Below, in pieces: positions 3,352 through 32,372 of a stretch of 64,000 bases of DNA. Both the position numbers and the translations under genes were made by a program. Source of the stretch: Terriglobales bacterium. Its GTDB lineage: Bacteria; Acidobacteriota; Terriglobia; Terriglobales; Acidobacteriaceae. Position 1 is the stretch's first letter. The number at the start of each line of letters is the position of its first letter. The stretch covers positions 42,454 through 106,453 of the forward strand of contig JACPNP010000028.1 in assembly GCA_016185365.1 (NCBI GenBank). The letters are read 5' to 3'. The notes under the pieces were generated by a model. The model was not told where the DNA came from. It made no database searches and was given only the letters and a program-made list of their open reading frames with translations.

Positions 3352-3463
3352 GGGAGCGCTCCTCCGGAAGTTCGCGGAGATTGTACGCTATGGCTTGCCG
3401 GATTTCGTGGGTAAAGAAAACGGGCGCGGCCGAAGCCGCGCCGTTGTTTTTCAACCACTGTGT

Positions 3464-6736: not shown

Positions 6737-6809
6737 GGGGATTCCTGTTCCTTCCTGTGTCTTGAACGAGAAAAGAGAATGGGGTGCGGCATGGCCGCAC
6801 CCCGTATGG

Positions 6810-7604: not shown

Positions 7605-7820
7605 TGTGAATCTCCTTTATTTGAGTGCGGACGTACCGCGAACGAGCGGATCGTGCGGGATTGGGGAACGCGAGCCATCATTTGGGTTTACGGCGAGAAC
7701 TCAGACATTACCGGGACGTCTGGAAAGTGTCAATCTACGACCTGGCATCGTAATTCCCGTACGAACGAGACCGACTCCGGGTTCAACCATTCGTCCCAGC
7801 ATTCTTCGGGGCCGCAGGCT

Positions 7821-9814: not shown

Positions 9815-9846
9815 TCGCCCTCCAAAATCCTTATCCTACCGGATGC

Positions 9847-10878: not shown

Positions 10879-10907
10879 CACGGCCTTTACGGTTAGACTA
10901 GGACAGC

Positions 10908-13049: not shown

Positions 13050-13112
13050 TCCCGCCGGCGTGTTTCTTTTCCGGTGCTGTGGCCGCGATCCATCTTGTAA
13101 AATCCAACTTCT

Positions 13113-15083: not shown

Positions 15084-15087
15084 TGGT

Positions 15088-15711
15088 TTAGCGTACTGCT
15101 TTCTGCTGGAAATTCTCTCTCATCAGCCGGAAAATGCTAACGGCTATCAAGCCACACCTCACTCGAACCTTCGTTATTCGAACCAGATTTGTTTCACCGA
15201 GCAGCCCGCAGACTGATCGAGCATAGTGCCAGCAGACGTCTTCGGCAGGCAAACCCTCTTGGCCAAATCTAAACCTTCCGTACTCAGCTTGTCTTTCGTC
15301 GTAAACCGAGTCGAGATATTGTCGATATCGCTCTGCGTCAGTCAATTCCAAATTTCGACTTAACACCTCCCGCAACTCGCCATAGAAGTGAGTCTGAAAA
15401 ATCACTCTGCGTTCAGGACCGAGCACTGAAAAAGCTGCCCTGTCCATTATGTGTGCCCAGAAAACGACCTCTTCAACCTCCAAACGATCAAGGACCTGTG
15501 GGGCTGGCAATAGCTTCGAAAGATCCTGGTAAAACGCTCTCACACCGGCGAATTCAACCCTCACCAGGGCATTGGCTATCTCGACCGCCTTCTCTACACA
15601 ATACTCGTCCATGTTCATTGCTTCGATGAGCATTTCAAAAGCCCGATCGTATAGGTTAACTTGTTGCTGATCTTTGCCGACAGGCCTCTGTCGAGGCTTC
15701 GTCTGGACCAT
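15088..15711 (-). CDS. Hypothetical protein in a low-GC islet (start uncertain: 15633, 15711 or 15765 are ATG options; 15837 is TTG)
   Basis: ORF 15088..15837. I recognise no family. GC is visibly lower (about 48%) than the flanks. Its 5' part overlaps the 3' end of the upstream histidine phosphatase gene unless the start is at 15633. Confidence 0.45.
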   Translation of the reverse strand: MVQTKPRQRPVGKDQQQVNLYDRAFEMLIEAMNMDEYCVEKAVEIANALVRVEFAGVRAFYQDLSKLLPAPQVLDRLEVEEVVFWAHIMDRAAFSVLGPERRVIFQTHFYGELREVLSRNLELTDAERYRQYLDSVYDERQAEYGRFRFGQEGLPAEDVCWHYARSVCGLLGETNLVRITKVRVRCGLIAVSIFRLMRENFQQKAVR

Positions 15712-16618: not shown

Positions 16619-17218
16619 GGGAGGGGCATGGCTTCAGCCGTGCCGATAAGCTTACGCTACACCCCCGGCTTTAGCCGCTGAGGTAAGGTCTCGGCGGATC
16701 CAGCTTGTACCCAGGATAGGCAGAACAGTACTTGTACTTCTCCGGCCTCTCCACCATCCCGGCCTTCACCGGATTCTGCTGGATGTACTCCACAAACGTC
16801 TTGTATTCCTCCGCGTTTCGCACTCTCCGGTCGGTATACCCCTTCTGCCACACCGCCGGTCCTTTGCGGCCGGCTTGTTTCAATTGGTAAGCGCTCCCGC
16901 CCTTGATCAACTGCAATGCCCGCTCCAGCGTCGTCCCTGGAGAGGTGGTGATCAGCAGGTGAAAGTGGTCCGGCATCAGGACAAACGCAAGCAGGCGATA
17001 GTGACCTTGCTTTCGGTAGTGATAAAGCATCACCAAGAAGAGGCGTGCCCATCGCTCGACTTGAAATACCGGCCGCTTCCCCAGAGTGCTGGAAGTGATG
17101 AAATAGGTCTGCGGTCCTACCGGAGGCGGAAGATGCTTTGGAATCAAGACCTGACCTCAGCGGCTAAAGCCGGGCACTGGCTAGCAACACACGGCACGGC
17201 TAAAGCCATGCCCCTCCC
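16619..17218. mobile_element. RAYT gene flanked by two nested inverted REP-like pairs (REPIN-RAYT-type unit)
   Basis: The outer pair is 16619-16645 (GGGAGGGGCATGGCTTCAGCCGTGCCG) versus 17192-17218, its reverse complement with 1 mismatch. The inner pair is 16664-16684 (CCCGGCTTTAGCCGCTGAGGT) versus 17154-17174, a perfect reverse complement. Confidence 0.75.
16671..17147 (-). CDS. REP-associated tyrosine transposase (RAYT; IS200-like Y1/HUH superfamily)
   Basis: 158-aa ORF with TTG start. The HUH motif is in LMPDHFHLLI and the Tyr motif is VWQKGYTDRRV. The last codons overlap the inner REP. Confidence 0.8.
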   Translation of the reverse strand: MIPKHLPPPVGPQTYFITSSTLGKRPVFQVERWARLFLVMLYHYRKQGHYRLLAFVLMPDHFHLLITTSPGTTLERALQLIKGGSAYQLKQAGRKGPAVWQKGYTDRRVRNAEEYKTFVEYIQQNPVKAGMVERPEKYKYCSAYPGYKLDPPRPYLSG

Positions 17219-17263: not shown

Positions 17264-17548
17264 TCACACCTGCCTCGCGGGATGCACCTCGCGCGTGACC
17301 CGGGGCAGCACCTCAGGCACATAGATCGTTTGGATCGCGGCCAGCTTGCCGTGCGCCTCCCAATGGGCGCGTGTTTGCCAATGTTCCACCAGCATGAACG
17401 TCTTGGGATCTTCCAGGGACTGATACGCCTCCCAGCGCGTGCATCCCGGCTCGGCCAGACACATCGGACGCATGCGCGCCAGTGCATCCGCCACCGGCGC
17501 CACATCTTCGGATGTCTTCGCGCTGAGCGTGACGATCAGATGGAACAT
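17264..17548 (-). CDS. Antibiotic biosynthesis monooxygenase (ABM) domain protein / putative quinol monooxygenase
   Basis: 94-aa ORF. EPGCTRWEAYQSLEDPKTFMLVEHWQTRAHWEAH is typical of the ABM/YgiN family. Confidence 0.7.
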   Translation of the reverse strand: MFHLIVTLSAKTSEDVAPVADALARMRPMCLAEPGCTRWEAYQSLEDPKTFMLVEHWQTRAHWEAHGKLAAIQTIYVPEVLPRVTREVHPARQV

Positions 17549-17576: not shown

Positions 17577-17981
17577 TCACGGCGCTTCCGGAAGCGTGTA
17601 CTCGAATTCGTAGAAGTGCTTCCCGTCTTCGATCTTGATGCTCATCCGGCCCGTCAGGCCGGTGAGTTGTCCCGTGCCCGAATCCGGCACCACGGTGATG
17701 GAAAGCTGCGGCGCGCCCCGGTCCATGGTGCCGCTGTGCTGCAGAATGAATGTGCCCGTGCGTCCGTGCAGCGTGGCCATGACCTTTTCCAGCGCCACAT
17801 ACCCGGCCGAACCTTTTACCGCTGTGCCCGCCGCCAGCATCTCGCCTTTGCCGGCGCCTTCCAGGTCGCCGTGGAACTGCTTGTCGATGGTCATGCGGCT
17901 GTGGGTCGCTTCCTCGGGCTTGCCTTCCGGCGGTTGCGGCGTGAGCTTCACATCAAAGGACCCGCTGGCGTGTTTGGACAT
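17577..17981 (-). CDS. DUF3224 domain protein
   Basis: The ORF extends to 18059, but the ATG at 17981 (MSKHASGSFDVKL...) matches the usual DUF3224 N-terminus. The conserved blocks FHGDLEG, GSAGYVA and GTGQLTGLTG are present. Confidence 0.65.
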   Translation of the reverse strand: MSKHASGSFDVKLTPQPPEGKPEEATHSRMTIDKQFHGDLEGAGKGEMLAAGTAVKGSAGYVALEKVMATLHGRTGTFILQHSGTMDRGAPQLSITVVPDSGTGQLTGLTGRMSIKIEDGKHFYEFEYTLPEAP

Positions 17982-18134
17982 GGCTGATCTTTTTTCTCTC
18001 CCTCGAGCGGCTTCGACGCGTGGCCCTGAGTATAGGCAACCGGAGCCAGCGCCACGCACACGCTGACGATGATGGCGGCAATGACTTTGGATCTTCGGAC
18101 CTCCATGTGTCCCTTCCTTTGCGCTGGAGTCGGA

Positions 18135-18884
18135 TCACCCTTCCCGCAACGCGATCACCCGCTCCCGCGTGCGGGCGGCGGCTTCTTTGCGGTCGTCGAA
18201 GCGAAAGCTCTCCTCGGCGAAGCGCACGCGGGCGCGGATGGCCGGGCGCGATAGCAGCTTAAGCACATGCGGAAGAAATGTCATCTCGCCCCAATAGCAG
18301 ACGTCCTGGGCCGCATCGCCTTCGTCGAGTTCATAGCGGATGTATCCCGCGGTGACCTCCGCTTCGCTCTGCACCGCGGCCTCAAGCAGCGGCGAACGGA
18401 ACGGCAGCACCTCGGCGCCGTTCGAGCTGGTCCCCTCGGGGAACAGGACACAGAGCGCTCCGGATTGCAGCGCGAGTGTCAGCTCTTCGTTCACGCGCAC
18501 GGCATCGGCGGCGCGTTGCCGGTCCACGTAGACCGTCCCCGCCAGCGTCGCCAGCAGGCCGAAGAGCGGCCACTGCCGCACCTCTTTCTTGGACACGAAC
18601 ACGCACGGCCCGATCGCGCTTAGGGTCATGATGTCGAGATAGCTCAGGTGATTGCTGACCAGCAGTCCGCGCGCGGGCATCGGACCTTCCGCGGCGAAGT
18701 CCACGCCCAGACGGGGCAGCGCGACCGCGCACCAGGTGTGCAACCAGCGGGCGCGCTCGGCGTGGCTGGGCGCGCGGAGCAGGCGGAGTCGAAGGAGCAG
18801 ATAGGCGAGGAGACAGGCGGATGCGGTCCAGAGCAGTTTCACGGTCCGGATGGCGGATCGCAGGCCTGCTCTTATCTTGCGCAA
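18135..18884 (-). CDS. olsA: Lysophospholipid / lyso-aminolipid O-acyltransferase (PlsC family, OlsA-like)
   Basis: 249-aa ORF with an N-terminal TM segment, the HX4D motif VSNHLSYLD and FPEGTSS. It lies 3 nt downstream of the OlsB-like gene. Confidence 0.7.
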   Translation of the reverse strand: MRKIRAGLRSAIRTVKLLWTASACLLAYLLLRLRLLRAPSHAERARWLHTWCAVALPRLGVDFAAEGPMPARGLLVSNHLSYLDIMTLSAIGPCVFVSKKEVRQWPLFGLLATLAGTVYVDRQRAADAVRVNEELTLALQSGALCVLFPEGTSSNGAEVLPFRSPLLEAAVQSEAEVTAGYIRYELDEGDAAQDVCYWGEMTFLPHVLKLLSRPAIRARVRFAEESFRFDDRKEAAARTRERVIALREG

Positions 18885-18887
18885 CGG

Positions 18888-19715
18888 CTATCCCTCCAGG
18901 AAGCGCGCTCGCGCGGCCGACGACATCCGGTCCAGGTCGAGCAGCGTCAGGAAGTCGATGGTACCAAATTCCCGGTCGATGGCCGGCGGCCCGGCGATCC
19001 GCGCCCCGATGGAGAGATAGGCGCGAAGCAATCGCGGAGGATGCACATTGATCATCATGGCGCCTTGCTTTGGGAGTTCGTATCCAGGCACGGGATGGCT
19101 TCGCAGCCCGGGCTCAGCCAGATACGGCTTCAAGTGCCGGTACATGGCGTCCCCTTCCGCCGGATCCTGCGAAGTCAGCGAGCTGCAGCCGACCAGATAA
19201 CGCGCCCCTTGCCGGTTTGCATATTGGGCGATCCCCCGCCACAGCAGGCTCAGCACCTCGAAGGAGCGGTGGTCTCGATGGATACATGCCCGTCCCAGCT
19301 CCACGATCCGGTCGCGCAGCGGTTCGTATGGTGAAAAATCGAACTCGCGGGCGCTGTAGTATCCGAGATTGCGGGCCGCCGTGATGCCTGTCTGCAAGCG
19401 GTAGGTCCCGACCACCTGCCGGGTCGGGCCGTGCTCCACCACCAGATGGTCGCAAACGGCATCGAACTGGTCGCGGTCAAGCCCTGTCTTATGAGCAGCT
19501 TCCAGACCCTCATTCAACTCCAGATTGAAGACTGTATAGCGCAGGCGGAATACCGAGGTCAGGTCCTCATTCGCTTGCGCGACCCGCATGCAGTAGGCGC
19601 CGCAGGTCACCGTGCCCATGTCCGCCAAGCTAGGAACCAGCGCTAAAGCACTTGCCTCGGGAGAGGCTTGCAGCAGTCCGTTCATGTGGTTCTCCCCCCT
19701 TGCGACCCGACTCAC
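18888..19715 (-). CDS. olsB: GNAT-fold N-acyltransferase of the OlsB/hemolysin-like family (N-acyl amino acid lipid synthase)
   Basis: 275-aa ORF with FRLRYTVFNLELNEG, GTYRLQ, ELGRACIHRDHR and LLWRGIAQYA, typical of OlsB-type acyl-ACP:amino acid N-acyltransferases. Confidence 0.7.
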   Translation of the reverse strand: MSRVARGENHMNGLLQASPEASALALVPSLADMGTVTCGAYCMRVAQANEDLTSVFRLRYTVFNLELNEGLEAAHKTGLDRDQFDAVCDHLVVEHGPTRQVVGTYRLQTGITAARNLGYYSAREFDFSPYEPLRDRIVELGRACIHRDHRSFEVLSLLWRGIAQYANRQGARYLVGCSSLTSQDPAEGDAMYRHLKPYLAEPGLRSHPVPGYELPKQGAMMINVHPPRLLRAYLSIGARIAGPPAIDREFGTIDFLTLLDLDRMSSAARARFLEG

Positions 19716-19877
19716 CCCTCAGTCCAGGGACCCGACCTCAATGGCTCCAGTATGTGATTCCCTCGTTTCCGGGTAGTTACAACCCTACAACTTTTCAATG
19801 AATGTGACTTTTCAAGGATTTAGGAATCTTAGGGAGCAGGTTGGTGATGTCAACATTTCAGTCGGCCGGGGGCCCCC

Positions 19878-20330
19878 ATGAAATCCGTACTTGTCTTTGC
19901 TCTGCTCGTCGCCCTGTCTTCATTCGCGCTGGCCGCGGACAAGTCCTTGCTCAACCTCGACAAGGACGGCATTGCCTTGCAGGGTTACGATCCCGTCGCA
20001 TTTTTCACGGACAACAAGCCGGTGAAGGGCGATCCGAAGTTCGTCTCTATCTACAAGGGCGCCACATACCAATTCGCCTCCGCGGAGCACCGCGATCTGT
20101 TCAACAAGGACCCCAAGAAATATGAGCCGCAATTCGGCGGCTACTGCGCCTATGCGGTCTCCAAGGGAAAGACCGCCCCGGTGGAGATCGATGCCTTCGC
20201 CATCGTGGACGGCCGGCTGTTGATGCAATACGACAAGGACATTCGCGACACGTTCGCCAAAGATTCCAAAGGCAATCTGGTCAAGGCCGACCATAACTGG
20301 CCAGGCATCGTTGCCGACAAAGGAAAGTGA
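19878..20330 (+). CDS. Secreted YHS-domain protein
   Basis: 150-aa ORF with signal peptide MKSVLVFALLVALSSFALA. ALQGYDPVAFF...YQFASAEHRDLFNKDPKKYEPQFGGYCAY is the YHS-type motif set. Confidence 0.75.
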   Translation: MKSVLVFALLVALSSFALAADKSLLNLDKDGIALQGYDPVAFFTDNKPVKGDPKFVSIYKGATYQFASAEHRDLFNKDPKKYEPQFGGYCAYAVSKGKTAPVEIDAFAIVDGRLLMQYDKDIRDTFAKDSKGNLVKADHNWPGIVADKGK

Positions 20331-20728
20331 CAATGTCGAAGACACAGACTGTCATCAGCTGGGTCTGCCGCATCATCGCGGCGGTGATCCTGCTGCAGAC
20401 GCTTTACTTCAAATTCACAGGGGCGCCGGAGTCGGTCTACATCTTCACCAAGATGGGCGCGGAGCCGGCGGGGCGCATCGGCTCAGGTGTGATCGAATTG
20501 ATCGCCTCGCTGCTGATGTTCCTGCCGCGCACGGTCTGGCTGGGAGCCGGTCTGGCTCTGGGCACGATGGCCGGCGCGATCGTCTCCCATCTCACCTTTT
20601 TGGGCATTGAGGTGATGGGCGACAAGGGCGAGCTATTCGCGCTGGCTTGCGTCACTTTTGTTTGCAGTGCGACTGTTTTATTCCTTTACCGGCGGGACAT
20701 CCCCATCCTGGGGGCAAAGCTCACTTGA
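20327..20728 (+). CDS. DoxX-family integral membrane protein
   Basis: 133-aa ORF with four predicted TM segments. The GTG at 20327 overlaps the YHS stop as GTGA; an ATG alternative lies at 20333. Confidence 0.7.
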   Translation: MTMSKTQTVISWVCRIIAAVILLQTLYFKFTGAPESVYIFTKMGAEPAGRIGSGVIELIASLLMFLPRTVWLGAGLALGTMAGAIVSHLTFLGIEVMGDKGELFALACVTFVCSATVLFLYRRDIPILGAKLT

Positions 20729-21246
20729 AAAGCCCTTTGGTGAGTTCGCTGGAGCAGGTGCTGGAGCAGGGTCTTTCCCTGCTCGAACATCTCGGTGACC
20801 GCGATTACGCGATGCGCCTGGCCGTGCCCTATAACGCTTCGATCGGCGCGCATTACCGCCATATTGTGGACCACTTGCTCTGCCTCCAGGGAGGGTTGCA
20901 TGCAGGCCGGGTGGACTATGACCTGCGCGGAAGAGACCCACGCGTGGAGATCGAGCGTGATTACGCACGGTCGGTCACGCGGGGCCTGCGGGATTCATTC
21001 CGCAGTCTTACCGTGAAAGATTGCGACCGCACCCTCGCCGTGTCTTATTCCGTCGGCTACGACCTGAACCGGACGGAGTGGCTCGCCTCCACCGTGGGCC
21101 GCGAACTAGCATTCTGCACCGGTCATGCGATCCACCACTTCGCCATCATCCGTATCCTCTGCTCCCAGCTCGAAGTCGCCGTGCCGGAGCACTTCGGCGT
21201 GGCGCCCTCCACCTTGAAATTCCTCCAGACCACACCCACGAACTAA
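20725..21246 (+). CDS. DinB-family (DinB_2) metal-dependent protein
   Basis: The His triad context is HYRHIVDH ... GHAIHH. The in-frame TTG at 20725 overlaps the DoxX stop as TTGA. The track ORF start at 20647 lies inside the DoxX gene and is unlikely. Confidence 0.65.
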   Translation: MKSPLVSSLEQVLEQGLSLLEHLGDRDYAMRLAVPYNASIGAHYRHIVDHLLCLQGGLHAGRVDYDLRGRDPRVEIERDYARSVTRGLRDSFRSLTVKDCDRTLAVSYSVGYDLNRTEWLASTVGRELAFCTGHAIHHFAIIRILCSQLEVAVPEHFGVAPSTLKFLQTTPTN

Positions 21247-21258
21247 GCCGGAAACCCC

Positions 21259-22899
21259 ATGGGCGAACTGCTCACCAACCCGTTGTCCGGCACGGTGGCC
21301 CTGGCCGTCTCCATCATTCTTGCGACGTTCGTCTCAGAAGACGGCGCAACCGTTCTGGCTGCTTCCCTGGCCGCAGCCGGCATGGCGGACACGCGTGTCG
21401 CCCTGGGCAGCGCATTCGTCGGCATCTGGCTGGGTGACATCGGTCTTTATGGGATCGCACGCGCATTGGGCGACGCTTGCCTCCGCAACTCATTTGCCCG
21501 CCGATTCGTCTCGCCCGATGCACTGACTCGCGCGGAGGTTCGGTTCCGCCAGTCCGGTGGCTACGCGCTGGTCGCCAGCCGCTTCATTCCCGGCACTCGA
21601 CTGCCCACGTATCTTGCTGCCGGGGCGCTGCGCATGCGCTTCCGGTCGTTCGCCCTGGTCACGGCCATGTGCGGCGTAGTGTGGGTCAGCTTGGTCTTTT
21701 TGCTGACGACATTGATCGGCGGACAAGTTCTGTCCCGATTCGTCACTAGCCCATATCACTCCTGGGCCTTGTTTGGATTTGGGGCTATGATTCTGAGCAC
21801 CTTGATCCTCATTGGAAGATTCAGCGCGCGTTTCGGCGGCCGGGTCCGCTTGTTCGTCGAGAAATATCGCCGCTGGGAGTTCTGGCCGATGTGGCTGTTC
21901 TATCCGCCGGTGGTCGTGATGTGCGCCTGGCTGGCGATCAAGTATCGCGGCATTTCATTGCCGACAATAGCGAACCCCTCGCTGCATACCGGCGGCATCA
22001 TCGGCGAGTCGAAGTTTCAATACCTTGCGTCGCTGTCCGAGACCGCGCCGGAGTTCACCGCGGACGCTTATCTGGTCCCGCCCGGAGATCCGGCGACACG
22101 CACGCGGACCTTGCACGACCTGTTCCTGCGCCGAAGACTCTATTTCCCATTCGTGCTCAAGCCCGACATCGCTCAGCGCGGTGACGGATTCAAGCGCATC
22201 GCCTCTTTCGAGGCAGCGGAGAATTATCTGCGCGCTGTCCCGGGCCCGGTTGTGATGCAACGCTATGCCCCCGGTCCCCGCGAAGCCGGCATCTTTTATT
22301 ACCGCTTCCCCGGTGAAGCGCAGGGCCACATCTTTGCCATCACGGAAAAAGAGTTTCCCGTGGTCACTGGCGATGGCGTGCAGACCTTTGAGGAATTAGT
22401 GGACGCCGACTCTCGCGCCGCTCTGATCGCGGAGACCTACCGCGCGCGCTTCCCTCAACTTCAAGGAAGTATCCTGCCTGCCGGAGAAAAACTGCGGCTG
22501 GTGGAAGCCGGCAATCACTGTCAGGGTTGTATTTTCCGCGACGGTATGCACTTGGCCACGGAAGCTTTGCGCGCGCGTATCGACGAGATTTCGCGGCAGC
22601 TTCCCGGGTTTTTCATCGGCCGCTATGACGTGCGCTATGCGTCAGACGACGACCTGCGCGCCGGGCGGGATTTCCAGATCGTCGAACTGAACGGCTCCTC
22701 CGCCGAGGCCACCAGCATTTACGATCCCCGCAACTCGCTGTGGGAGGCGTATCGTACTCTGTATCGGCAGTGGGACCTGGTCTTTGCTATCGGCCAGGCC
22801 AACCGCGATCGTGGCCATCGTCCGTCGTCCGTAGGCGAGGTCTGGCGGGAGTGGCTTGCGTATCGCAGGCAGTCGGTGTTGTACCCTTTGGCGGATTGA
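21259..22899 (+). CDS. Fusion protein: N-terminal DedA/VTT (SNARE-associated) membrane domain + C-terminal ATP-grasp ligase domain
   Basis: 546-aa ORF. The N-terminal roughly 230 aa are polytopic, with FVSEDGATV...GIWLGDIGLYGIAR...ASRFIPGTRLPTY (DedA motifs). The C-terminus has FVLKPDIAQRGDG, VVMQRYAPG and QIVELNGSSAEAT, an ATP-grasp core pattern. Confidence 0.7.
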   Translation: MGELLTNPLSGTVALAVSIILATFVSEDGATVLAASLAAAGMADTRVALGSAFVGIWLGDIGLYGIARALGDACLRNSFARRFVSPDALTRAEVRFRQSGGYALVASRFIPGTRLPTYLAAGALRMRFRSFALVTAMCGVVWVSLVFLLTTLIGGQVLSRFVTSPYHSWALFGFGAMILSTLILIGRFSARFGGRVRLFVEKYRRWEFWPMWLFYPPVVVMCAWLAIKYRGISLPTIANPSLHTGGIIGESKFQYLASLSETAPEFTADAYLVPPGDPATRTRTLHDLFLRRRLYFPFVLKPDIAQRGDGFKRIASFEAAENYLRAVPGPVVMQRYAPGPREAGIFYYRFPGEAQGHIFAITEKEFPVVTGDGVQTFEELVDADSRAALIAETYRARFPQLQGSILPAGEKLRLVEAGNHCQGCIFRDGMHLATEALRARIDEISRQLPGFFIGRYDVRYASDDDLRAGRDFQIVELNGSSAEATSIYDPRNSLWEAYRTLYRQWDLVFAIGQANRDRGHRPSSVGEVWREWLAYRRQSVLYPLAD

Positions 22900-22903
22900 A
22901 GCA

Positions 22904-23650
22904 ATGTGCACGCTCTCCTTCGTTCCGAAAGACGGCGGATATCTGCTCGCCATGAACCGCGACGAGCGCCTGGCACGACAGGCTGCGCTCCCCCCTCATT
23001 TCTTTGGTGAAGCTACATTCCCCATCGTCTATCCCCATGAGCCGGAGGGGGGCACGTGGATCGGCGCCAATGCCGCCGGTGTCGCCTTCGCCTTGCTGAA
23101 TTGGAATATCCCGGCGGACCGCTCGCGTCAGCGCGTCAGTCGCGGGACGTTGATCCCGCTACTTCTGCCTCATGCCGATGCGACGAGTGCCGGCACTTCT
23201 CTCGAAGATCGTGACCTTTCGGGCGTCCTGCCCTTTCGTCTGGTCGGCTTCTTTCCTGGCGCGGGGGAGATCCGCGAGTGGCATTGGGACATGAGCGCTC
23301 TGGCGAGTCACGCGCACAGCTGGATGACGAACCACTGGTTCTCCTCCGGAGCAGGCGACGACCTGGCAGAGTTGCATCGTGGCATGGCGGTCGGCGCGGC
23401 CCAGCAGGATCCATCCGCCGGGTCACTGGATTGGCTGCGCGCGCTGCATCGCTCCCACGCGCCCGCGCGCGGGCCCTTCAGCCTGTGCGCCCATCGCGAG
23501 GACGCGGGTTCGGTGAGCTACACCGAGATCGTCTGCTTGAACGGCACCTTGCAGATGTCCTATCATCCCGGTCCGCCGTGCGAGCGCAGCCCGGGTCACA
23601 CGCTCTCCCTGCGGCTTCGGGCACTCCAGGAGCAACCCACGCATGTATGA
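22904..23650 (+). CDS. NRDE-family protein (DUF833; TANGO2 homologue), putative N-terminal-nucleophile hydrolase
   Basis: The ATG at 22904 gives MCTLSFVPKDGGYLLAMNRDE, i.e. Cys2 plus the eponymous NRDE motif. It starts 5 nt after the previous stop. Confidence 0.75.
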   Translation: MCTLSFVPKDGGYLLAMNRDERLARQAALPPHFFGEATFPIVYPHEPEGGTWIGANAAGVAFALLNWNIPADRSRQRVSRGTLIPLLLPHADATSAGTSLEDRDLSGVLPFRLVGFFPGAGEIREWHWDMSALASHAHSWMTNHWFSSGAGDDLAELHRGMAVGAAQQDPSAGSLDWLRALHRSHAPARGPFSLCAHREDAGSVSYTEIVCLNGTLQMSYHPGPPCERSPGHTLSLRLRALQEQPTHV

Positions 23651-23885
23651 ACTCGTGGTGACGGCCCTTGTCTATGCTTTCGAGGTGTACCTGTTTGCCG
23701 GAGTCGTGTTTTCGATATTTTTCGTCCGAAGTTGGCTAGACCAGCTGGACCCGGTAGCGAAAGGGTCCACCCGCGGCTTCCGGCTCATCATCATTCCAGG
23801 CGCGATAGCGTTGTGGCCCTGGTTGTGGCTTCGTGTGAGGCAACACAAGTCAGTGTCGGCGACAGAAAGCGCTTCCCACGAATGA
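23643..23885 (+). CDS. Small two-TM membrane protein (80 aa), unknown function
   Basis: The ORF overlaps the NRDE stop by 8 nt and has two hydrophobic segments (ALVYAFEVYLFAGVVFSIFF and LIIIPGAIALWPWLWL). Confidence 0.55.
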   Translation: MYELVVTALVYAFEVYLFAGVVFSIFFVRSWLDQLDPVAKGSTRGFRLIIIPGAIALWPWLWLRVRQHKSVSATESASHE

Positions 23886-23980
23886 TCCGCCCCCTTCGTC
23901 GTATTCACCGCTGGGTCTGGTTCGCTCTCGCGGTCATTCTGCCGGTGATCTTCATCGCGGCGCTGGTGGTGCGCTCATGA
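23882..23980 (+). CDS. Micro-ORF, 32-aa single-TM peptide (MIRPLRRIHRWVWFALAVILPVIFIAALVVRS)
   Basis: Below the ORF-track size cutoff. ATGA overlaps occur at both ends: with the 80-aa gene stop at 23883-23885 and with the next gene's ATG at 23977. It has a positive N-terminus followed by a TM helix. Confidence 0.5.
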   Translation: MIRPLRRIHRWVWFALAVILPVIFIAALVVRS

Positions 23981-25029
23981 GCGTGAGCTACCAGGCTGTC
24001 GGGTGGAACCGCCAGAAGAAGATCTATGATTTCGTGCTGGTAAGCGGGATCATCTGCTATTTGCTCGTGTTTGTAGCACTGGGCGGATACCGTCATCGCA
24101 ATGCCACGATCGAGACGCTCCTGATCCGCGGATTCGGCACGGCCGCATTGCTGCTTTTGCATATCGTACTTTGCATCGGGCCGCTCAGCCGGATCAACCG
24201 CAAGTTCCTTCCGCTGCTTTACAACCGGCGCCATCTCGGCGTAGCGACTTTCATTCTGGGACTGGCGCACGGCACGTTTGCGCTCATCCAGTTCCACAGC
24301 CAGGGCGAATTGAATCCGCTGGTCTCGTTGTTCGTCAGCAACACCCGGTTCGACAGTCTCTCGCAGTTCCCTTTCCAGCCGCTTGGCTTCTTCGCCCTCA
24401 TCATCCTGTTTCTCATGGCCGGCACCAGCCATGACTTCTGGTTGCACAACCTCTCACCGGTCATTTGGAAGCGGCTGCATATGCTGGTGTACGTGGCATA
24501 CGCGCTTCTGATCGCACACGTCAGCCTTGGAGTTCTTCAAGCGGAAACGAGCCCGGTCCTCGCGACTGTGTTGGGACTCGGACTCGCTATCGTCATCCTG
24601 CTGCATTTGGCCGCAGCCGTGCTTGAGCATCCGGCGGACCGGGATAAAGTCTCCGCCCGCGAAGATGGTTTCGTTGAGGTAGGCGAAGCAGCCAGCATTC
24701 CGGAGAACCGAGCGCGTGTCGTTTGCCTCTCCGGGGAGCGTGTCGCGGTCTTCCGCTACGGTGACAAGATCTCCGCCGTCTCCAACGTCTGCCGGCACCA
24801 GAACGGTCCGCTGGGCGAAGGAAAGATCATTGACGGCTGCATCACGTGTCCGTGGCACGGCTATCAATATCTGCCCGACAGCGGTACGTCGCCGCCGCCA
24901 TTCACCGAAAAGGTCGAGACCTATGCTGTGCGAGTCGAAGGCGGCAAAGTGTTCGTGCATCCGCGGGCAAATCCGCCGGGCACGCGCGTGGAGCCGGCCC
25001 GTATCCCCGTCGGGGAGGCCGTATCATGA
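23977..25029 (+). CDS. Fusion protein: ferric-reductase-like (FRD/YedZ-type, di-haem) transmembrane domain + C-terminal Rieske [2Fe-2S] domain
   Basis: 350-aa ORF with six TM segments and His pairs (RRHLGVATFILGLAHG and RLHMLVYVAYALLIAHV). The C-terminal CRHQNGPL...CPWHGYQY is a Rieske CxH...CxxH motif. Confidence 0.75.
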   Translation: MSVSYQAVGWNRQKKIYDFVLVSGIICYLLVFVALGGYRHRNATIETLLIRGFGTAALLLLHIVLCIGPLSRINRKFLPLLYNRRHLGVATFILGLAHGTFALIQFHSQGELNPLVSLFVSNTRFDSLSQFPFQPLGFFALIILFLMAGTSHDFWLHNLSPVIWKRLHMLVYVAYALLIAHVSLGVLQAETSPVLATVLGLGLAIVILLHLAAAVLEHPADRDKVSAREDGFVEVGEAASIPENRARVVCLSGERVAVFRYGDKISAVSNVCRHQNGPLGEGKIIDGCITCPWHGYQYLPDSGTSPPPFTEKVETYAVRVEGGKVFVHPRANPPGTRVEPARIPVGEAVS

Positions 25030-25763
25030 GCGACTTCTATGTGGGCTATCAGCCGGAAGCGCCGCGGCATCTTGCCCGGTTCATCTTCCGGCTCGTCGTA
25101 GTGATCGCGGTGATCACGTGCGCGATCGATGTGGCTCTGGTCACGGGCCAGCGCGAGTTCCCCGCCGCCGGTTTCGATTACGACAATCCGCAGACGTATC
25201 GCGGCACCATCGTCGAGCAGCCGGTCCCGACTTTTCTCATGACGATCCCCGGCGCGACCGTCAGCACGCCGACCATCAAATCCTATCTGTTGGTCGCACC
25301 GGGCAAGCATGGCGCCGGGCCCCTGGTCGCCGGTTTCGACGGCCGGCAGGTGGAGTTCATGGGCAAACTGATCTACCGCAGCAATGGGACCATGCTTGAG
25401 GTCGTGCCCGGTTCGATCAAAGCGATCAAGCCATCGAAGCTCACGCCGACTGTTACTGACCTCGGCACGGTCACACTCACGGGTGAGATCGTGGATACCA
25501 AGTGCTACCTGGGTGTGATGAATCCCGGCCAGGGCAAGCCCCATCGCGACTGCGCTTCTCTGTGCCTCCGCGGCGGCATCCCGGCAGGCTTGGCCGTTTA
25601 CAAAGGCAAGGGCAAGACCGATCTCTACCTCTTGTTGGACACCACTGGCAAGCCCATCGGTCGTGACCTTTTGCGACATGCGGGAGAAAAAATCTCAATG
25701 GTGGGGTTCGCCAGTAGGATCGGCGATCAGCTTTATCTGAAAGTGACTTCGGAAGGTGAGTAG
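25026..25763 (+). CDS. N-terminally anchored hypothetical protein with conserved Cys cluster
   Basis: The ATG at 25026 overlaps the previous stop as ATGA. A TM anchor (FIFRLVVVIAVITCAIDVALV) is followed by a soluble domain with TKCYLGVMNPGQGKPHRDCASLCLRGG. I recognise no family. Confidence 0.55.
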   Translation: MSDFYVGYQPEAPRHLARFIFRLVVVIAVITCAIDVALVTGQREFPAAGFDYDNPQTYRGTIVEQPVPTFLMTIPGATVSTPTIKSYLLVAPGKHGAGPLVAGFDGRQVEFMGKLIYRSNGTMLEVVPGSIKAIKPSKLTPTVTDLGTVTLTGEIVDTKCYLGVMNPGQGKPHRDCASLCLRGGIPAGLAVYKGKGKTDLYLLLDTTGKPIGRDLLRHAGEKISMVGFASRIGDQLYLKVTSEGE

Positions 25764-25788
25764 CGCCAAGAATCGCGTTCCTGCAGGC

Positions 25789-26100
25789 AAAGAAATGGCT
25801 CCTCAGGTAGGACTCGAACTTGAGGCGTCTGGCGGGCGTGAAGCCGAGCGCAGCGAGGCTGTGAGCCCGCCGCCGAAATCCTGAGCGACCCCGAGCGAAG
25901 CGAGGGGAGTCGAAGGACCTCTTTAGTTCTGGCGATGTTGGGGAAAAGAAATGGCTCCTCAGGTAGGACTCGAACTTGAGGCGTCTGGCGGGCGTGAAGC
26001 CGAGCGCAGCGAGGCTGTGAGCCCGCCGCCGAAATCCCGAGTGAGAGGCCGGAGGCCGAATCGAGGGACCCCTTGAGCAATTTGTTTAGGGGAAAAGAAA
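25789..26100. repeat. Two tandem ~150-bp units, each starting with the tRNA-Asn trailer plus the last 24 nt of tRNA-Asn (att-like fragments)
   Basis: TGGCTCCTCAGGTAGGACTCGAAC occurs at 25796-25819 and 25952-25975, and again as the true tRNA 3' end at 26101-26124. The two units are identical over about 93 bp (25789-25881 versus 25945-26037) and then diverge into REP-like sequence. Confidence 0.85.
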
Positions 26101-26176
<76 letters not shown>

Positions 26177-26321: not shown

Positions 26322-28466
26322 ATGACCGGAGTCGCCCGCGTGCTCACGCTCTCCTTCTTCCTGCCGCTTTTTGTAGCGGCCGTTTTCGCCGCTGATCCCG
26401 CCAGTGACGCCACCACCTCCCCTGCTTATCCACCCAAGACCAAGGCTCAGCCGGTACAGGAAACGTTGCACGGCACCACCATCACGGATCCCTATCGCTG
26501 GCTGGAGAACGGCGCCGATCCGGAGACCCAGCATTGGACCGCGGAGCAGTTTGCCCTCACGCGCTCCATGCTCGCGGCGCAGCCGTCGCACGGTGTGGTC
26601 CATGCGCGGCTGAACGAGTTGTTGAACATCGGCACGGTGGGCACCCCCAGCGTGAACGCCGACTATTACTTCTATACGCGGCGTGAATCCGGACAGAACC
26701 AGCCGATCCTTTATGTGCGGGAAGGCATCGGCGGCACGGACCGCGAGCTGGTCAATGCCAACACCATGTCCGCCGACGGCACGGTCGCGCTTGACTGGTG
26801 GTATGCCTCCGAGGACGGCAAGTATGTGGCCTTCGGCACCTCGCCCGGCGGTTCCGAGATCAGCACGCTGCGACTGGTCGAGACCGCGACCGGCAAGCTG
26901 CTGGACGAGAAGATCGACCGCTGCCGAGCTGCCTCCATGGCCTGGCTGCCGGACAACTCCGGCTTCTACTACACCAAGCTGCCCCGTCCCGGTGACGTCG
27001 CCCCCGGGCAGGAGCTTTACAACCGCCACGTGTTCTTTCACCAGATCGGCACCAATCTTGACGGTTTGAAAGACGAGCTGGTCTTCGGCGAAGGCCGCAG
27101 CCCGCAGGAGTGGCCCGGCGTCGATGTCTCGGACGACGGCCGCTGGCTGCTCGTTTCCGCCGGCGTCACCTTCGAGCGCGTGGACCTGTTCCTGAAGGAC
27201 CGCAAGAGCGGCGGCGATTTCAAGATGATCGTCGGCGGCAAGGACTTCACCTACAACGCCGAGATCTATCAGAACAACATGTACGTCCAGACCAACGAAG
27301 GCGCGCCCAAGTTCCGCGTCTTCAAGGTCAGCATGGACAACCCCGCGCGTGAGAACTGGAAGGAGCTGCTGCCCGAGTCCGAAGGCGTGCTGAAGGGCAC
27401 GCGCATCGTGGGCGGCAAGCTGGTGGCCGAATACGAGAAAGACGCCAACTCGCGACTCAAGCTCTATTCGCTCGATGGCAAGTTCCTGCGCGACATCCCT
27501 CTGCCGTCCCTGGGCAACGTGACCGGACTGGGTGGCAGCAAGAAAGGTTCCACCGTTTTCTACGGCTTCAACTCCTACACCACCCCGCCTTCGGTCTACG
27601 ACTTCGATCTCGAAACTGAGAAAAGCAATGCCTGGGCCAAAGTGGCGTCAAACATCGATCCGTCGCTTTACGAAGTGAAGCAGGTCTTCTACCCCTCGAA
27701 AGACGGCACTAAGGTCCCGATGTTCATCGTTTACAAAAAGGGGATGAAGCTCACCGGCAAGACGCCGACGCTGCTCTTCGGCTACGGCGGCTTCAATATC
27801 TCCCACACACCCACGTTCTACCCCTGGCTGCATCTGTGGCTGGAGCACGGCGGGATCTTTGCAGACGCCAATCTGCGCGGCGGAAGCGAGTATGGCGAGG
27901 AATGGCACAAGGCCGGCATGTTGGAGAAGAAGCAGAACGTCTTCGATGATTACATCGCCGCCGCCGAATATCTGCTGGCGCAGAAATACACCGACCGCGA
28001 CCACCTCGGCATCTACGGCCGCTCCAACGGAGGTCTGCTGACCGGCGCGGCCCTCACCCAGCGCCCGGACCTGTTCCGCGCCGTGATCTGCGGCGTGCCC
28101 TTGCTGGACATGCTGCGCTACCAGCAGTTCCAGATCGCTAGGCTGTGGATCCCCGAGTACGGCACCGCGGAGAATCCTGACCAGTTCAAGTTCATCTACG
28201 CCTACTCTCCCTATCACCATGTGAAGAAGACGCAGTATCCCGGCATCCTCTTCTTCGCGTCGGAAGGCGATACGCGCGTGGACCCGCTGCATGCGCGCAA
28301 GATGACGGCTCTGCTACAAGCCAGCGCCACCAACGGTCCGGACCGGCCCATCCTGCTGCGCATCGAACCGAAAGCCGGACACGGCGCGGGCAAGCCGGTC
28401 AGCATTCAGGTGGCCGAATGGGCGGACATCTTCACGTTCCTGTTCTGGCAGCTGGGAGTGAAATAG
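26322..28466 (+). CDS. Prolyl oligopeptidase (S9A family), secreted
   Basis: 714-aa ORF with a signal peptide. It has YPPKTKAQPVQETLHGTTITDPYRWLE (typical POP N-terminus), the catalytic GRSNGGLL serine motif, and a C-terminal D...H. Confidence 0.9.
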   Translation: MTGVARVLTLSFFLPLFVAAVFAADPASDATTSPAYPPKTKAQPVQETLHGTTITDPYRWLENGADPETQHWTAEQFALTRSMLAAQPSHGVVHARLNELLNIGTVGTPSVNADYYFYTRRESGQNQPILYVREGIGGTDRELVNANTMSADGTVALDWWYASEDGKYVAFGTSPGGSEISTLRLVETATGKLLDEKIDRCRAASMAWLPDNSGFYYTKLPRPGDVAPGQELYNRHVFFHQIGTNLDGLKDELVFGEGRSPQEWPGVDVSDDGRWLLVSAGVTFERVDLFLKDRKSGGDFKMIVGGKDFTYNAEIYQNNMYVQTNEGAPKFRVFKVSMDNPARENWKELLPESEGVLKGTRIVGGKLVAEYEKDANSRLKLYSLDGKFLRDIPLPSLGNVTGLGGSKKGSTVFYGFNSYTTPPSVYDFDLETEKSNAWAKVASNIDPSLYEVKQVFYPSKDGTKVPMFIVYKKGMKLTGKTPTLLFGYGGFNISHTPTFYPWLHLWLEHGGIFADANLRGGSEYGEEWHKAGMLEKKQNVFDDYIAAAEYLLAQKYTDRDHLGIYGRSNGGLLTGAALTQRPDLFRAVICGVPLLDMLRYQQFQIARLWIPEYGTAENPDQFKFIYAYSPYHHVKKTQYPGILFFASEGDTRVDPLHARKMTALLQASATNGPDRPILLRIEPKAGHGAGKPVSIQVAEWADIFTFLFWQLGVK

Positions 28467-28552: not shown

Positions 28553-29221
28553 TCACAGCGGAGACGGCGTCGCAGCCGTCTCCCCACGCCCCTTCACCCA
28601 TCCCACGCAGATCCCCGCTTGCGCCGTGTAGTACGTCAGCCAGATCAGCTCATGGCTGAATGGAAACGGCCCTGAGAAGCGCGCAACCCCCAGAAGCGCG
28701 TCCGACAGAACAAAGCTCAGCCCGCCCAGCGCGACCCAAGGGGTCCGCACAGGCGCCAGTTGCGCTGAGGCAGCCATCCCGGTCAACGCCAGAGAGTAGA
28801 CGACCACCGGCCACAACAGAAAATCAAGTTTCGGCCCGAGGAACGCGAGCATCGCGACCATCACTGCCGGCAGCGCCAGTGCAACAGCCTTGCGCCAGCC
28901 GGGCACGATCGCCAAGCCTTGATACCGCAATCCGAAGAATGCGATGTAGCAGAAGTGTGCCTGGAAGAACACCGCCATGCCCGCCATGAACAGAAAAAGC
29001 CGGGTCATGGGATCGAACGCAGGGAACGCCAGCACCGCATCGCCGACCGCACTGATGACCAGTGCCGTGGCCAGGAGCCGTTCGCGCTGTCGGAATGCCA
29101 GCGCGGCCAACAGCAGGATGGACGCGACCTTGACGCTGATCGCCGGCCACCCGGGAAACATCTGCCGCGCCAGAAGAAAGGCCATCGCGCAGGCGAAGGA
29201 AAGATTGATGAGGAGGCGCAC
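28553..29221 (-). CDS. YhhN-family (lysoplasmalogenase-like) membrane protein
   Basis: Polytopic membrane protein with SAVGDAVLA and LSFVLSDALL blocks typical of YhhN/TMEM86. The start is uncertain: GTG 29221, ATG 29185, or the ORF maximum 29344. Confidence 0.65.
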   Translation of the reverse strand: MRLLINLSFACAMAFLLARQMFPGWPAISVKVASILLLAALAFRQRERLLATALVISAVGDAVLAFPAFDPMTRLFLFMAGMAVFFQAHFCYIAFFGLRYQGLAIVPGWRKAVALALPAVMVAMLAFLGPKLDFLLWPVVVYSLALTGMAASAQLAPVRTPWVALGGLSFVLSDALLGVARFSGPFPFSHELIWLTYYTAQAGICVGWVKGRGETAATPSPL

Positions 29222-29346
29222 GACACCAGTGTAGCTGCCAGCCGCCAGATGCCAGCAACCAGTAAATTCAACATCAGGTTCTTCGGCGCATGAGACGCGC
29301 CTCAGAATGACACGACAACGAATAAATCGTCCCGGGCAAACCAAAG

Positions 29347-31745: not shown

Positions 31746-32372
31746 CAGGCCCGCAGGGCCGCAAGGTCAATAGCCCAGGCCGGAAGGCCTGGGTGCGGTG
31801 CAAGGAAAACAGTGAGCCCCGCCAGGGGCGACAGACCTAATCAAACACGTATTTCAGGTTGTATTCCACACCATGTTTGTCCAACAATGCGATGAATTCA
31901 TCTTCGAACGTCCGTCTGCGATGATGTTGTTCCTGAGTCTCAATGTATCGGCAAACGGCTGACACATTCGATGCGCTCACCGTGAACGCTCCGTATCCTT
32001 CCTGCCATCCGAACCGCCGGTCTTCTTCGCGCATCCACTTCGACGAATTGGCTTTCAAGATGTTGATCGCTTTTGCCGGGGCAAGGTCCGACGGCAACGA
32101 AGCCAGGATGTGGATGTGGTCAGCCATCCCGCCGATGGCATAGCATTTCATCTTGTGATTGCGCGCGATGGCGCTCAAATATTGATATAAGCGCTGCTGT
32201 TTCTCAGGTCGAATCAGCTTGATCCGTTGCCTTGTGCTCCAAACCAGATGGAAATAGCTACTGATGAACGAATGCGCCATGCTCTGTCGCCCCTCCGGGG
32301 CTCACGGAATTGTGGGCATTCTAACCCAGGCCTTCCGGCCTGGGCTATTGACCTTACGGCCCTGCGGGCCTG
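31746..32372. mobile_element. IS200/IS605-like Y1 transposase unit bounded by long imperfect inverted repeats
   Basis: 31746-31794 (CAGGCCCGCAGGGCCGCAAGGTCAATAGCCCAGGCCGGAAGGCCTGGGT) is the reverse complement of 32324-32372. Inner arms at 31812-31834 and 32284-32305 are also complementary. Each arm contains its own hairpin, CCCAGGCC-GGAA-GGCCTGGG. Confidence 0.8.
31837..32280 (-). CDS. tnpA: IS200/IS605-family Y1 (HUH) transposase TnpA / RAYT-like
   Basis: 147-aa ORF with YHLVWSTRQR, the HUH motif in ADHIHILASLP, and the catalytic Tyr block WQEGYGAFTVS. Confidence 0.85.
   Translation of the reverse strand: MAHSFISSYFHLVWSTRQRIKLIRPEKQQRLYQYLSAIARNHKMKCYAIGGMADHIHILASLPSDLAPAKAINILKANSSKWMREEDRRFGWQEGYGAFTVSASNVSAVCRYIETQEQHHRRRTFEDEFIALLDKHGVEYNLKYVFD

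Follow-up and report, generated by a model that had tools for sequence, protein, structure and literature searches.

A nine-gene operon of Terriglobales consists of three separable modules, one of them a DinB, DedA::ATP-grasp and NRDE/TANGO2 core

What could a YHS-domain protein, a DoxX-family membrane protein, a DinB-fold protein, a DedA::ATP-grasp fusion, an NRDE/TANGO2-family protein and a ferric-reductase-type (FRD)::Rieske fusion accomplish together when they are encoded in one operon? The question is raised by positions 19878-25763 of a 64-kb stretch of DNA from a Terriglobales bacterium (contig JACPNP010000028.1), the whole of which was analysed and is called the window here. An earlier note on this DNA had described nine consecutive genes on a single strand, had stated that no described pathway combines their families, and had offered three readings: (a) synthesis or turnover of a low-molecular-weight (LMW) thiol, (b) haem or metal handling, and (c) envelope lipid modification. 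Direct reading of the sequence agreed with the described gene run. Nine open reading frames (ORFs) lie head to tail on the plus strand, at the coordinates of Table 1, and the junctions from g1 to g9 are two 4-nt overlaps (GTGA and TTGA), gaps of 12 and 4 nt, an overlap of 8 nt and three further overlaps of 4 nt. These genes form a real, tightly coupled operon, which splits into module A (g1-g2), module B (g3-g5) and module C (g6-g9) (Table 1). The window derives from a metagenome-assembled Acidobacteriales genome: NCBI proteins of such a genome are 100% identical to the g4 and g9 products, and two Acido-Lenti-1 RNA matches occur in the window. We consider it probable that stress regulates the operon and that it joins three modules around a ligase/translocator/hydrolase core. 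A more detailed proposal, which we hold tentatively and rate as somewhat short of probable, is that the nine genes are one transcription unit, read from a predicted promoter of the extracytoplasmic function (ECF) sigma type upstream of g1, that responds to thiol-oxidative or electrophile stress of the envelope, and that the core attaches an amide-linked group to the head group of a membrane lipid, flips it and takes it off again.

The division into modules is supported by the comparison of related loci. In a scan of one genome per species, at least 510 genomes were found to encode a relative of g4, the DedA::ATP-grasp gene, and we compared the 80 best loci, in which the modules were counted by tblastn with the window proteins. 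The 80 genomes belong to Acidobacteriota, Verrucomicrobiota, Alphaproteobacteria, other Pseudomonadota, Nitrospirota, Eisenbacteria, Myxococcota and Chloroflexota, and the neighbourhood is conserved well beyond Acidobacteriota: the DinB gene (g3) and the NRDE gene (g5) are each present in 77 of the 80 loci, always adjoining g4, and the misses are contig ends. The gap between the g4 stop codon and the g5 start codon has a median of 4 nt (63 loci). DoxX (g2) was detected in 55 loci, YHS (g1) in 41, g6 in 22, and g8 with g9 in 26, where these two genes travel together as one movable block. Alphaproteobacteria carry the triad of DinB, g4 and NRDE only, and Acidobacteriota carry nearly everything. 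The nearest relative (locus L094) has the same nine genes in identical order, the 80-aa and 32-aa ORFs included, with identities of 68% for g9, 49% for g6 (which has the same length) and 69% for g7 (the 32-aa ORF). A 13-kb contig (L090) holds g6-g9 without the core, and the g6-g9 block lies upstream of the core, downstream of it or on the other strand, depending on the locus; in most relatives an SDR gene with its own promoter, missing in the window, is located between g5 and g6. Because the modules are separable, the operon is best described as a concatenation of three modules. The treatment of the nine products as one pathway was not supported by this comparison, given that the core stands alone in Alphaproteobacteria and g6-g9 occur without the core in L090.

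Table 1. Coordinates in the window of the operon genes, the predicted promoter and the divergent olsB-like/olsA-like pair
Feature	Position	Strand	Description
g1	19878-20330	+	Secreted YHS-domain protein
g2	20327-20728	+	DoxX-family membrane protein; GTG start
g3	20725-21246	+	DinB-fold (DinB_2) protein; TTG start
g4	21259-22899	+	DedA/VTT membrane domain::ATP-grasp ligase fusion (predicted)
g5	22904-23650	+	NRDE/TANGO2-family Cys N-terminal-nucleophile protein
g6	23643-23885	+	80 aa, two transmembrane helices
g7	23882-23980	+	32-aa peptide, one helix
g8	23977-25029	+	Ferric-reductase-type haem b domain::Rieske [2Fe-2S]
g9	25026-25763	+	Membrane-anchored, predicted periplasmic Cys3His protein
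Predicted ECF-sigma-type promoter	19801-19838	+	TGTGACTTTT, spacer, AATCTTA; 77 nt before the g1 start codon
olsB-like N-acyltransferase gene	18888-19715	-	Linked neighbour outside the operon; Pfam Acetyltransf_5
olsA-like O-acyltransferase gene	18135-18884	-	Downstream of olsB; Pfam Acyltransferase

The domain calls of YHS, DoxX, DinB, DedA, NRDE, FRD and Rieske were borne out with Pfam or NCBIfam, and that of ATP-grasp by structure prediction. In the core, g3 matches DinB_2 (27.7 bits, cut-off 24.8) and keeps an intact set of metal-binding histidines, with H43, H46, H50, H134, H137 and H138 invariant in 77 sequences; it shows the one early His and the late HxxxH (H134-x3-H138) expected of the fold. 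Characterised DinB-fold enzymes are thiol transferases. The N-terminal half of g4 (about residues 1-157) matches VTT_dom (57.7 bits, cut-off 33.9), and E27, D28, R108, P111, G112 and R114 are invariant in an alignment of 16 sequences. This half scored 25.9 and 20.9 bits against the NCBIfam equivalog models for UptA, whose cut-offs are 250 and 300, respectively. The functions proposed for DedA-family proteins lie in lipid transport. The middle of g4 contains two more helices with an invariant membrane-interface motif, RWEFWP..FYPPV (residues 205-218), the hydrophobic segment of which is kept in every ATP-grasp homologue, including the stand-alone forms of 350-390 aa.

The C-terminal half of g4 (about residues 250-546) had no match in Pfam. 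However, an AlphaFold2 model of g4 built from 16 sequences (mean pLDDT 80) predicts a clear ATP-grasp fold for this half, and Foldseek matched the model to cyanophycin synthetase, GshAB and Ddl with a probability of 1.0 and E-values from 1e-8 to 1e-6. Weak profile matches of this half to solved structures were ATP-grasp enzymes without exception, and six fused g4 relatives match Pfam RimK directly. The VLKP(K301)..QRGxG segment aligns with the same ATP-binding motif of cyanophycin synthetase, and K301, G308 and G310 (Gly-rich loop) and the Mg-binding E476-x-N478 are invariant in the 16 sequences. The protein is predicted to be an ATP-dependent ligase with intact catalytic residues.

The third core protein, g5, matches TANGO2 (33.7 bits, cut-off 22.6), although only residues 12-114 were aligned. 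It begins with MCTLSF, which places a Cys directly after the initiator Met; its N18-R19-D20-E21 aligns with the N25-E28 NRDE motif of human TANGO2, and C2, N18, R19, D20, E21 and R80 are invariant in 75 sequences. By these residues g5 is a member of the TANGO2/NRDE family of Cys N-terminal-nucleophile (Ntn) proteins and a predicted enzyme. In the crystal structure of TANGO2 reported in 2026, the NRDE residues were assigned to a Cys Ntn active site (PMC13044924); its structural relatives are lipid and bile-acid amidases and an acyl-CoA-dependent acyltransferase, and binding of acyl-CoA was reported (PMC13044924, PMC11867700). A bacterial TANGO2 homologue was reported as a haem binder (PMC10470608), but the role in haem is disputed and the binding was found to be non-specific by crystallography (PMC12782551, PMC13044924). 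The activity of the family is itself disputed, and no function is settled (PMC10470608, PMC11867700, PMC12782551, PMC13044924).

The core components are also found in other orders and fusions. An exhaustive HMMER search with the ATP-grasp part recovered 2,877 clusters (50% identity) at E <= 1e-3, whose members fall into three length classes of about 350-390, about 520-560 and 800-1130 aa. Among the 37 long representatives, an N-terminal alpha/beta-hydrolase was present in 33, which have the architecture alpha/beta-hydrolase::VTT::ATP-grasp, and two start with TANGO2 and are four-domain TANGO2::hydrolase::VTT::ATP-grasp chains; a VTT domain was detectable in 31. DinB still adjoins the hydrolase-bearing fusions, and one such locus (L092) also has g6, FRD::Rieske and a g9-sized gene. 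Unfused arrangements include DedA (206 aa), NRDE and ATP-grasp (373 aa) in L081, DoxX-DinB-NRDE-ATP-grasp (396 aa) in L087, the split and reordered core SDR-VTT-ATP-grasp-DinB-NRDE of Salinivibrio kushneri (Vibrionaceae), and the order ATP-grasp, alpha/beta-hydrolase, VTT of Paracoccus denitrificans. That a ligase, one or two hydrolases and a lipid-transporter-type domain can share a single chain argues strongly for their action on one common substrate at the membrane.

Several of these loci showed additional features. In L092 (region 9487-15238) the four-domain gene is followed by the genes of a TetR regulator and an RND efflux pump, and the g9-sized gene is separated from DinB by an AhpC/TSA-like gene. 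A VTT/DedA::rhodanese fusion (4189-5148) is located 2 kb from the cluster of L087, whose ATP-grasp lacks the DedA fusion, and this hints at a link to sulfur transfer. In the alphaproteobacterial loci L007, L008, L019, L032, L033, L037, L039 and L048, genes for a MoxR AAA ATPase, a DUF58 protein, a VWA/BatA protein and a trypsin-like protease form a conserved set 5-9 kb downstream of the triad; they were considered as members of the system and judged to reflect lineage synteny. On plasmid pEMTOL01 of Emticicia oligotrophica (L091), a co-directional run (1260-9754) starts with an ECF-type sigma factor gene and continues with DinB, peroxiredoxin-like, DUF2062, hypothetical, thioredoxin, FAD oxidoreductase, GDCCVxC (seleno)protein, DUF4833, DinB, NRDE, TseH-like/DUF6695, tRNA_anti-like and YceI genes. 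The TseH-like/DUF6695 gene is annotated as two ORFs and is possibly frameshifted; its product was considered as a hidden ATP-grasp and rejected (hhalign probability 0.14), the protein being TseH-like (NlpC/P60-type). The ORF downstream of the DedA::ATP-grasp gene of Azospirillum was likewise rejected as an NRDE gene, as it showed no similarity and no Pfam match. The HtpA locus of Shewanella, which has a different gene context, was also discarded, because the neighbouring metal transporter gene is transcribed separately.

Evidence about the control of the operon came from the genes that surround its relatives. De novo clustering of all ORFs in the 80 loci revealed as recurrent neighbours an ECF sigma factor (41 loci), an NADPH-dependent FMN reductase (29), a tandem glyoxalase/VOC protein (20), a MIP channel (19), the thioredoxin-like DUF1223 (18), an SDR and a GMC oxidoreductase (17 each), an HbpS-like protein plus cupin (13) and MsrA (10). 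The partner of the sigma factor is a small soluble anti-sigma factor of 78-100 aa with an N-terminal Cys and an H-x3-C-x2-C motif, and C...H-x3-C-x2-C is the pattern of ligands in RsrA, a sensor of thiol oxidation. When bipartite motifs were sought without bias, TGTAAGG-N15-CGAC emerged from 59 of 259 upstream regions, and the shuffled controls never contained it. This motif precedes the sigma/anti-sigma, YHS, DoxX, DinB, g6 and SDR genes, as well as those for DUF1223, glyoxalase, HbpS, MsrA and, in some loci, OlsB. The form TGTAAGGAAT-N13-GCGACCAAT marks a sizeable ECF regulon in Verrucomicrobiota (L003, L013, L020, L021, L034, L070, L078 and others), which has a DM13-like periplasmic protein and a GMC oxidoreductase among its members, and was seen too in Nitrospirota (L060), Chloroflexota (L044) and Myxococcota (L064).

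Acidobacterial-type loci have a different motif, TGAAACTTTT-N13-(G/A)CTCC (n = 27 sites), located 45-80 nt upstream of DoxX, YHS, SDR-g6, MsrA and olsB. We built a weight matrix from these 27 sites, which precede orthologous genes in 16 other acidobacterial-type loci, with the window excluded. When both strands of the 64 kb were scanned with it, the site upstream of g1 ranked second of about 128,000 positions, and in L094 the same variant, TGTGACTTTT...AATCCTA, was the best match and occupies the same intergenic place. The verrucomicrobial TGTAAGG motif was not found in the window, nor were accessory regulon genes such as those for FMN reductase, glyoxalase and MsrA; a scan of the window for sigma-70 promoters and terminators gave counts no different from those of shuffled controls. 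Judged from these motifs and neighbours, the modules of the relatives appear to belong to a shared ECF sigma/zinc anti-sigma regulon. DoxX-like proteins, VOC dioxygenases/glyoxalases and flavin reductases are typical members of the quinone and diamide regulons of Bacillus subtilis, and from this likeness we infer that the signal would be thiol-reactive oxidants or electrophiles.

The proteins of modules A and C are consistent with a redox role. In module A, g1 matches the NCBIfam model YHS_seleno_dom, 'YHS domain-containing (seleno)protein' (146.6 bits, cut-off 70), and also Pfam YHS; its Cys90, in the motif GGYCAY, is present in 48 of 48 relatives, and a signal peptide read from the sequence predicts a periplasmic location. 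Its partner g2 matches DoxX (27.3 bits, cut-off 23.6). In module C, g8 scored above the cut-offs of both Ferric_reduct and Rieske in Pfam. Across 25 sequences there is no variation in the haem-ligating pairs H86/H98 and H168/H181, which are 12 and 13 residues apart on two helices, or in the Rieske ligands C272, H274, C291 and H294. With six helices and a basic N-terminus, the Rieske domain of g8 should be cytoplasmic according to the positive-inside rule. The protein reached 36.5 bits against the NCBIfam equivalog model for MsrQ (cut-off 130), and neither the window operon nor the recurrent gene families of the related loci included a gene for an MsrP-type molybdoenzyme. The FRD plus Rieske architecture was catalogued in 2013 as model M4 (PMC3591440).

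Searches of Pfam and NCBIfam gave nothing usable for g6, g7 and g9. The 32-aa transmembrane peptide g7, which is kept in L094, is the short form of a family of about 150-170 aa in most relatives, which consists of an N-terminus conserved across loci (MIxPLRxxHR), one transmembrane helix and a periplasmic domain. For g9, AlphaFold2 (pLDDT 78) predicted one N-terminal helix followed by two OB-like beta-barrels, and the alignment revealed an invariant C160/H173/C176/C180 site plus K94/H95. The homologues of g9, at least 1542, are all unnamed and without a Pfam domain, and no family was assigned to it because Foldseek against solved structures gave weak OB-fold matches (best E 2e-3).

Upstream of g1, a gap of 162 nt separates the operon from a divergent gene pair that the earlier note had called olsBA. 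The best NCBIfam matches of the two products are indeed OlsB (138.9 bits) and OlsA (135.2 bits), and their wider families are clear; however, both scores are under the equivalog cut-offs (350 and 300, respectively). Among the relatives, 22 of the 80 loci have olsB no further than 10 kb from the core and 8 have olsA, and olsB carries the shared promoter in L006, L010, L011, L021, L034 and L064.

Taken together, these data led us to favour a lipid as the substrate of the core, because the ligase is constantly anchored in the membrane, because of the fusions and the linkage to olsB, and because TANGO2 is akin to lipid and bile-acid amidases and binds acyl-CoA (PMC13044924, PMC11867700). Envelope lipid modification, which was reading (c), gained from the repeated DedA and hydrolase fusions, the membrane anchoring and the olsB neighbours, some of which share the promoter. 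That the substrate is specifically a lipid head group is possible, and we are less confident of it than of stress control. In such a mechanism, the ATP-grasp domain would sit at the cytoplasmic face, held by its own helices and the DedA domain, and would use ATP to join a carboxylate to an amine. The substrate would be membrane-associated, most likely an amino-bearing lipid head group, for example that of an ornithine-type lipid made by the neighbouring olsBA products, and the DedA domain would shift the substrate or the product between leaflets. The N-terminal Cys of the cytoplasmic NRDE/TANGO2 protein would cleave or transfer the amide-linked group, and in other lineages the fused alpha/beta-hydrolase would act beside NRDE or replace it. 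From the pairing of ligase and hydrolase, we infer that the two would set the level of modification. The DinB-fold metalloprotein may carry out an accessory metal- or thiol-dependent step, module A may constitute a periplasmic/membrane Cys/quinone redox pair, and in module C electrons would pass from the cytoplasmic Rieske centre via two b haems to the periplasmic g9. More speculatively, Cys2 of NRDE could be regulated by oxidation like the amidase Cys of the glutathionylspermidine enzyme Gss.

Several observations weigh against this proposal. The DinB-NRDE operon of Emticicia has neither DedA nor ATP-grasp, and the fold matches of the ATP-grasp half (cyanophycin synthetase, GshAB, Ddl) do not reveal its substrate. 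An ATP-grasp enzyme with a lipid head group as its substrate is not known to us, and the thiol-transfer chemistry of the DinB fold accords more readily with a soluble thiol conjugate than with a lipid. The olsB gene is not present in 58 of the 80 neighbourhoods, among them every alphaproteobacterial one, which means that it may simply be a co-regulated gene. Regarding the control, the promoter site of the window deviates at two positions from the consensus -35 element, and no ECF sigma or anti-sigma gene was found within the 64 kb. Finally, no experimental study of any family member was found in the literature searched.

Among the alternatives, the one that survives best, although we regard it as unlikely, is a mercapturate-like detoxification in which the DinB protein, as an S-transferase, would conjugate electrophiles to an LMW thiol, NRDE would be an S-conjugate amidase, the ATP-grasp would re-ligate the released moiety or make the thiol, and DedA would export the product. 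The established thiol-transferase activity of the DinB fold suits this scheme, as do the RsrA-like anti-sigma factor in the regulon, the presence nearby of MsrA, FMN reductase, glyoxalases and the thioredoxin-like DUF1223, and the position of the Emticicia DinB-NRDE pair among the peroxiredoxin-like, thioredoxin and selenoprotein genes of an ECF-led operon; in addition, GshAB is among the best fold matches of the ATP-grasp half, and the SigR regulon of Streptomyces, with a mycothiol ligase, an amidase and DinB proteins, sets a precedent. However, the scheme leaves unexplained the constant membrane anchoring of the ligase, its fusion to DedA and the olsB linkage. Moreover, none of the nine products matched an NCBIfam model of the known LMW thiol pathways (GshA/B, Msh, Bsh, Egt) at E <= 0.1, and the carriers include Proteobacteria, such as Vibrionaceae and Alphaproteobacteria, which as a rule make glutathione. 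What stands of reading (a) is its redox flavour, conveyed by the RsrA-like anti-sigma factor and by the MsrA, thioredoxin-like and glyoxalase neighbours; no evidence for the synthesis of a new thiol was obtained in these comparisons.

We consider it improbable that the core serves the cell wall, with a Ddl-like ATP-grasp that would extend an undecaprenyl-linked precursor (lipid II or a related carrier lipid) by one amino acid, a UptA-like DedA that would flip or recycle the carrier, and NRDE or the alpha/beta-hydrolase that would trim the product. Most of the fold matches are Ddl enzymes, the orthologue of Vibrionaceae bears the annotation D-alanine--D-alanine ligase, and the DedA half weakly matches undecaprenyl-phosphate transporter UptA models of NCBIfam; nevertheless, the UptA and Ddl scores are far under the family cut-offs, the 80 neighbourhoods show no enrichment of mur, pbp or other cell-wall genes, and the redox character of the regulon would have no explanation. 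It is equally improbable that all nine products handle a single metabolite, a possibility that includes the movement of haem or metals by way of YHS, the di-haem FRD and the TANGO2 homologue, given that the translational coupling of the nine genes in the window and in L094, the single promoter type shared by all modules in the relatives, the haem binding reported for a bacterial TANGO2 homologue (PMC10470608) and the HbpS-like proteins of 13 loci are set against modules that separate freely and vary in position and strand, a disputed haem role with non-specific binding (PMC12782551, PMC13044924) and the different gene context of Shewanella HtpA; reading (b), haem or metal handling, is weakly supported.

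Beyond the operon and the olsB-like/olsA-like pair, the window contains traces of mobile elements. Downstream of the operon, on the opposite strand, there is a tRNA-Asn(GTT) gene (26101-26175), and 36-nt direct copies of its 3' end and flank are found at 25784 and 25940, both followed by a 103-nt repeat (97% identical); these repeats, in the region 25784-26175, may be integration scars. An IS200-like Y1 transposase ORF (31837-32280, minus strand) is bracketed by two matches to the Acido-Lenti-1 RNA in opposite orientation (31747-31793, minus strand; 32325-32371, plus strand), and given this flanking position the 'RNA' motif has the appearance of the paired ends of an insertion element. Another ORF for an IS200-like Y1 transposase (16671-17147, minus strand) adjoins the genes of an ABM monooxygenase (17264-17548) and a DUF3224 protein (17577-18059), upstream of olsA. 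A prolyl oligopeptidase gene (26322-28466) follows the cluster both in the window and in L094, and beyond it the window has a gene for a YhhN-family membrane protein (28553-29344, minus strand).

In the literature searched, no described pathway was found to combine these families, in agreement with the earlier note; the combination of DinB, DedA::ATP-grasp and NRDE is undescribed there, although the 2009 amidoligase survey of Iyer and colleagues might mention it, and the phrase 'NRDE family protein' did not occur. Within this scope, the novelty lies in core module B, and for modules A and C, as for the ECF control, known kinds exist of which they are variants. The core recurs as separate genes, pairwise fusions and four-domain polypeptides, with or without an alpha/beta-hydrolase, and no characterised member was found. 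It bears on the function of the TANGO2 family, whose human gene causes a severe metabolic disorder and whose biochemistry is contested, on the substrates that DedA/VTT proteins move, and on the defence of the envelope against oxidants in the abundant soil phyla Acidobacteriota and Verrucomicrobiota. The fusions and the defined ECF promoter motifs supply hypotheses, and cultured carriers exist in Salinivibrio, Photobacterium, Vibrio aquimaris and Emticicia. As a generalisation that we put forward as doubtful, NRDE/TANGO2 proteins might be amidases or acyl-transferases that partner an ATP-dependent ligase and a VTT/DedA scramblase to control lipid head-group modification under oxidative stress. 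If this were true, the four-domain fusion would predict lipid amides or acyl conjugates as targets of human TANGO2, which would work as a functional partner of the VTT-domain scramblases TMEM41B and VMP1, and its disputed function would gain a concrete biochemical frame.

Parts of the operon and its regulon resemble known systems to different extents. The mycobacterial DoxX-SseA-SodA complex places a DoxX-family membrane protein in a thiol/oxidative-stress setting; the likeness consists of the DoxX-family protein and the VTT::rhodanese fusion near the L087 cluster, but in this operon DoxX is paired with a secreted YHS protein that has a conserved Cys, and neither SseA nor SodA genes were among the recurrent neighbourhood gene families. 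MsrQ (YedZ) of the MsrPQ system shares with g8 the six-helix haem b domain and electron flow outward to a periplasmic partner, which for g8 would be the unclassified g9 together with two small membrane proteins, and not the molybdoenzyme MsrP. The SigR-RsrA regulon and the MhqR, YodB and CatR regulons of B. subtilis are similar in that a small zinc anti-sigma factor (C...HxxxCxxC) accompanies the ECF sigma factor, and in having members of the DinB-fold, DoxX-like, glyoxalase/dioxygenase, FMN-reductase and Msr families; they differ in phyla and promoter motifs, and the DedA::ATP-grasp/NRDE core has no counterpart in them. TANGO2 and bacterial HtpA share with g5 the family domain, Cys2 and the NRDE motif, although g5 is a distant homologue and the gene context of HtpA differs.

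Regarding the core, two systems combine a ligase or transferase with an opposing hydrolase. In Escherichia coli Gss, an ATP-grasp carboxylate-amine ligase is coupled to an opposing Cys-nucleophile amidase in a manner linked to oxidative stress, since oxidation of the amidase Cys lets the product of the ligase accumulate. The physical coupling of an ATP-grasp ligase to a Cys amidase of opposite activity is the likeness to the core proposed here; in contrast, Gss is soluble, its amidase has a CHAP and not an Ntn fold, it has no DedA or DinB partner, and there is no sequence similarity past the ATP-grasp fold. MprF, the best architectural analogue of the core, unites a membrane flippase with a cytoplasmic enzyme for the aminoacylation of a lipid head group, with a cognate hydrolase encoded alongside (PMC8131360, PMC11980842, PMC13197417). 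No MprF flippase or tRNA-dependent synthase domain was matched by Pfam or NCBIfam in the nine products, and the systems are not homologous: the core has DedA in place of the MprF flippase, an ATP-grasp that would form an amide from ATP and a free carboxylate in place of a tRNA-dependent transferase that forms an ester, and a cytoplasmic Cys-Ntn protein and/or fused alpha/beta-hydrolase in place of a periplasmic hydrolase, and the DinB protein is always present. Nevertheless, both would fuse a translocator to a cytoplasmic group-adding enzyme and encode the cognate hydrolase (of the AcvB, VirJ or PA0919 aminoacyl-PG hydrolase type in the case of MprF) adjacently or in the same operon, and MprF has a role in adaptation to envelope stress; the resemblance between the two systems is architectural only.

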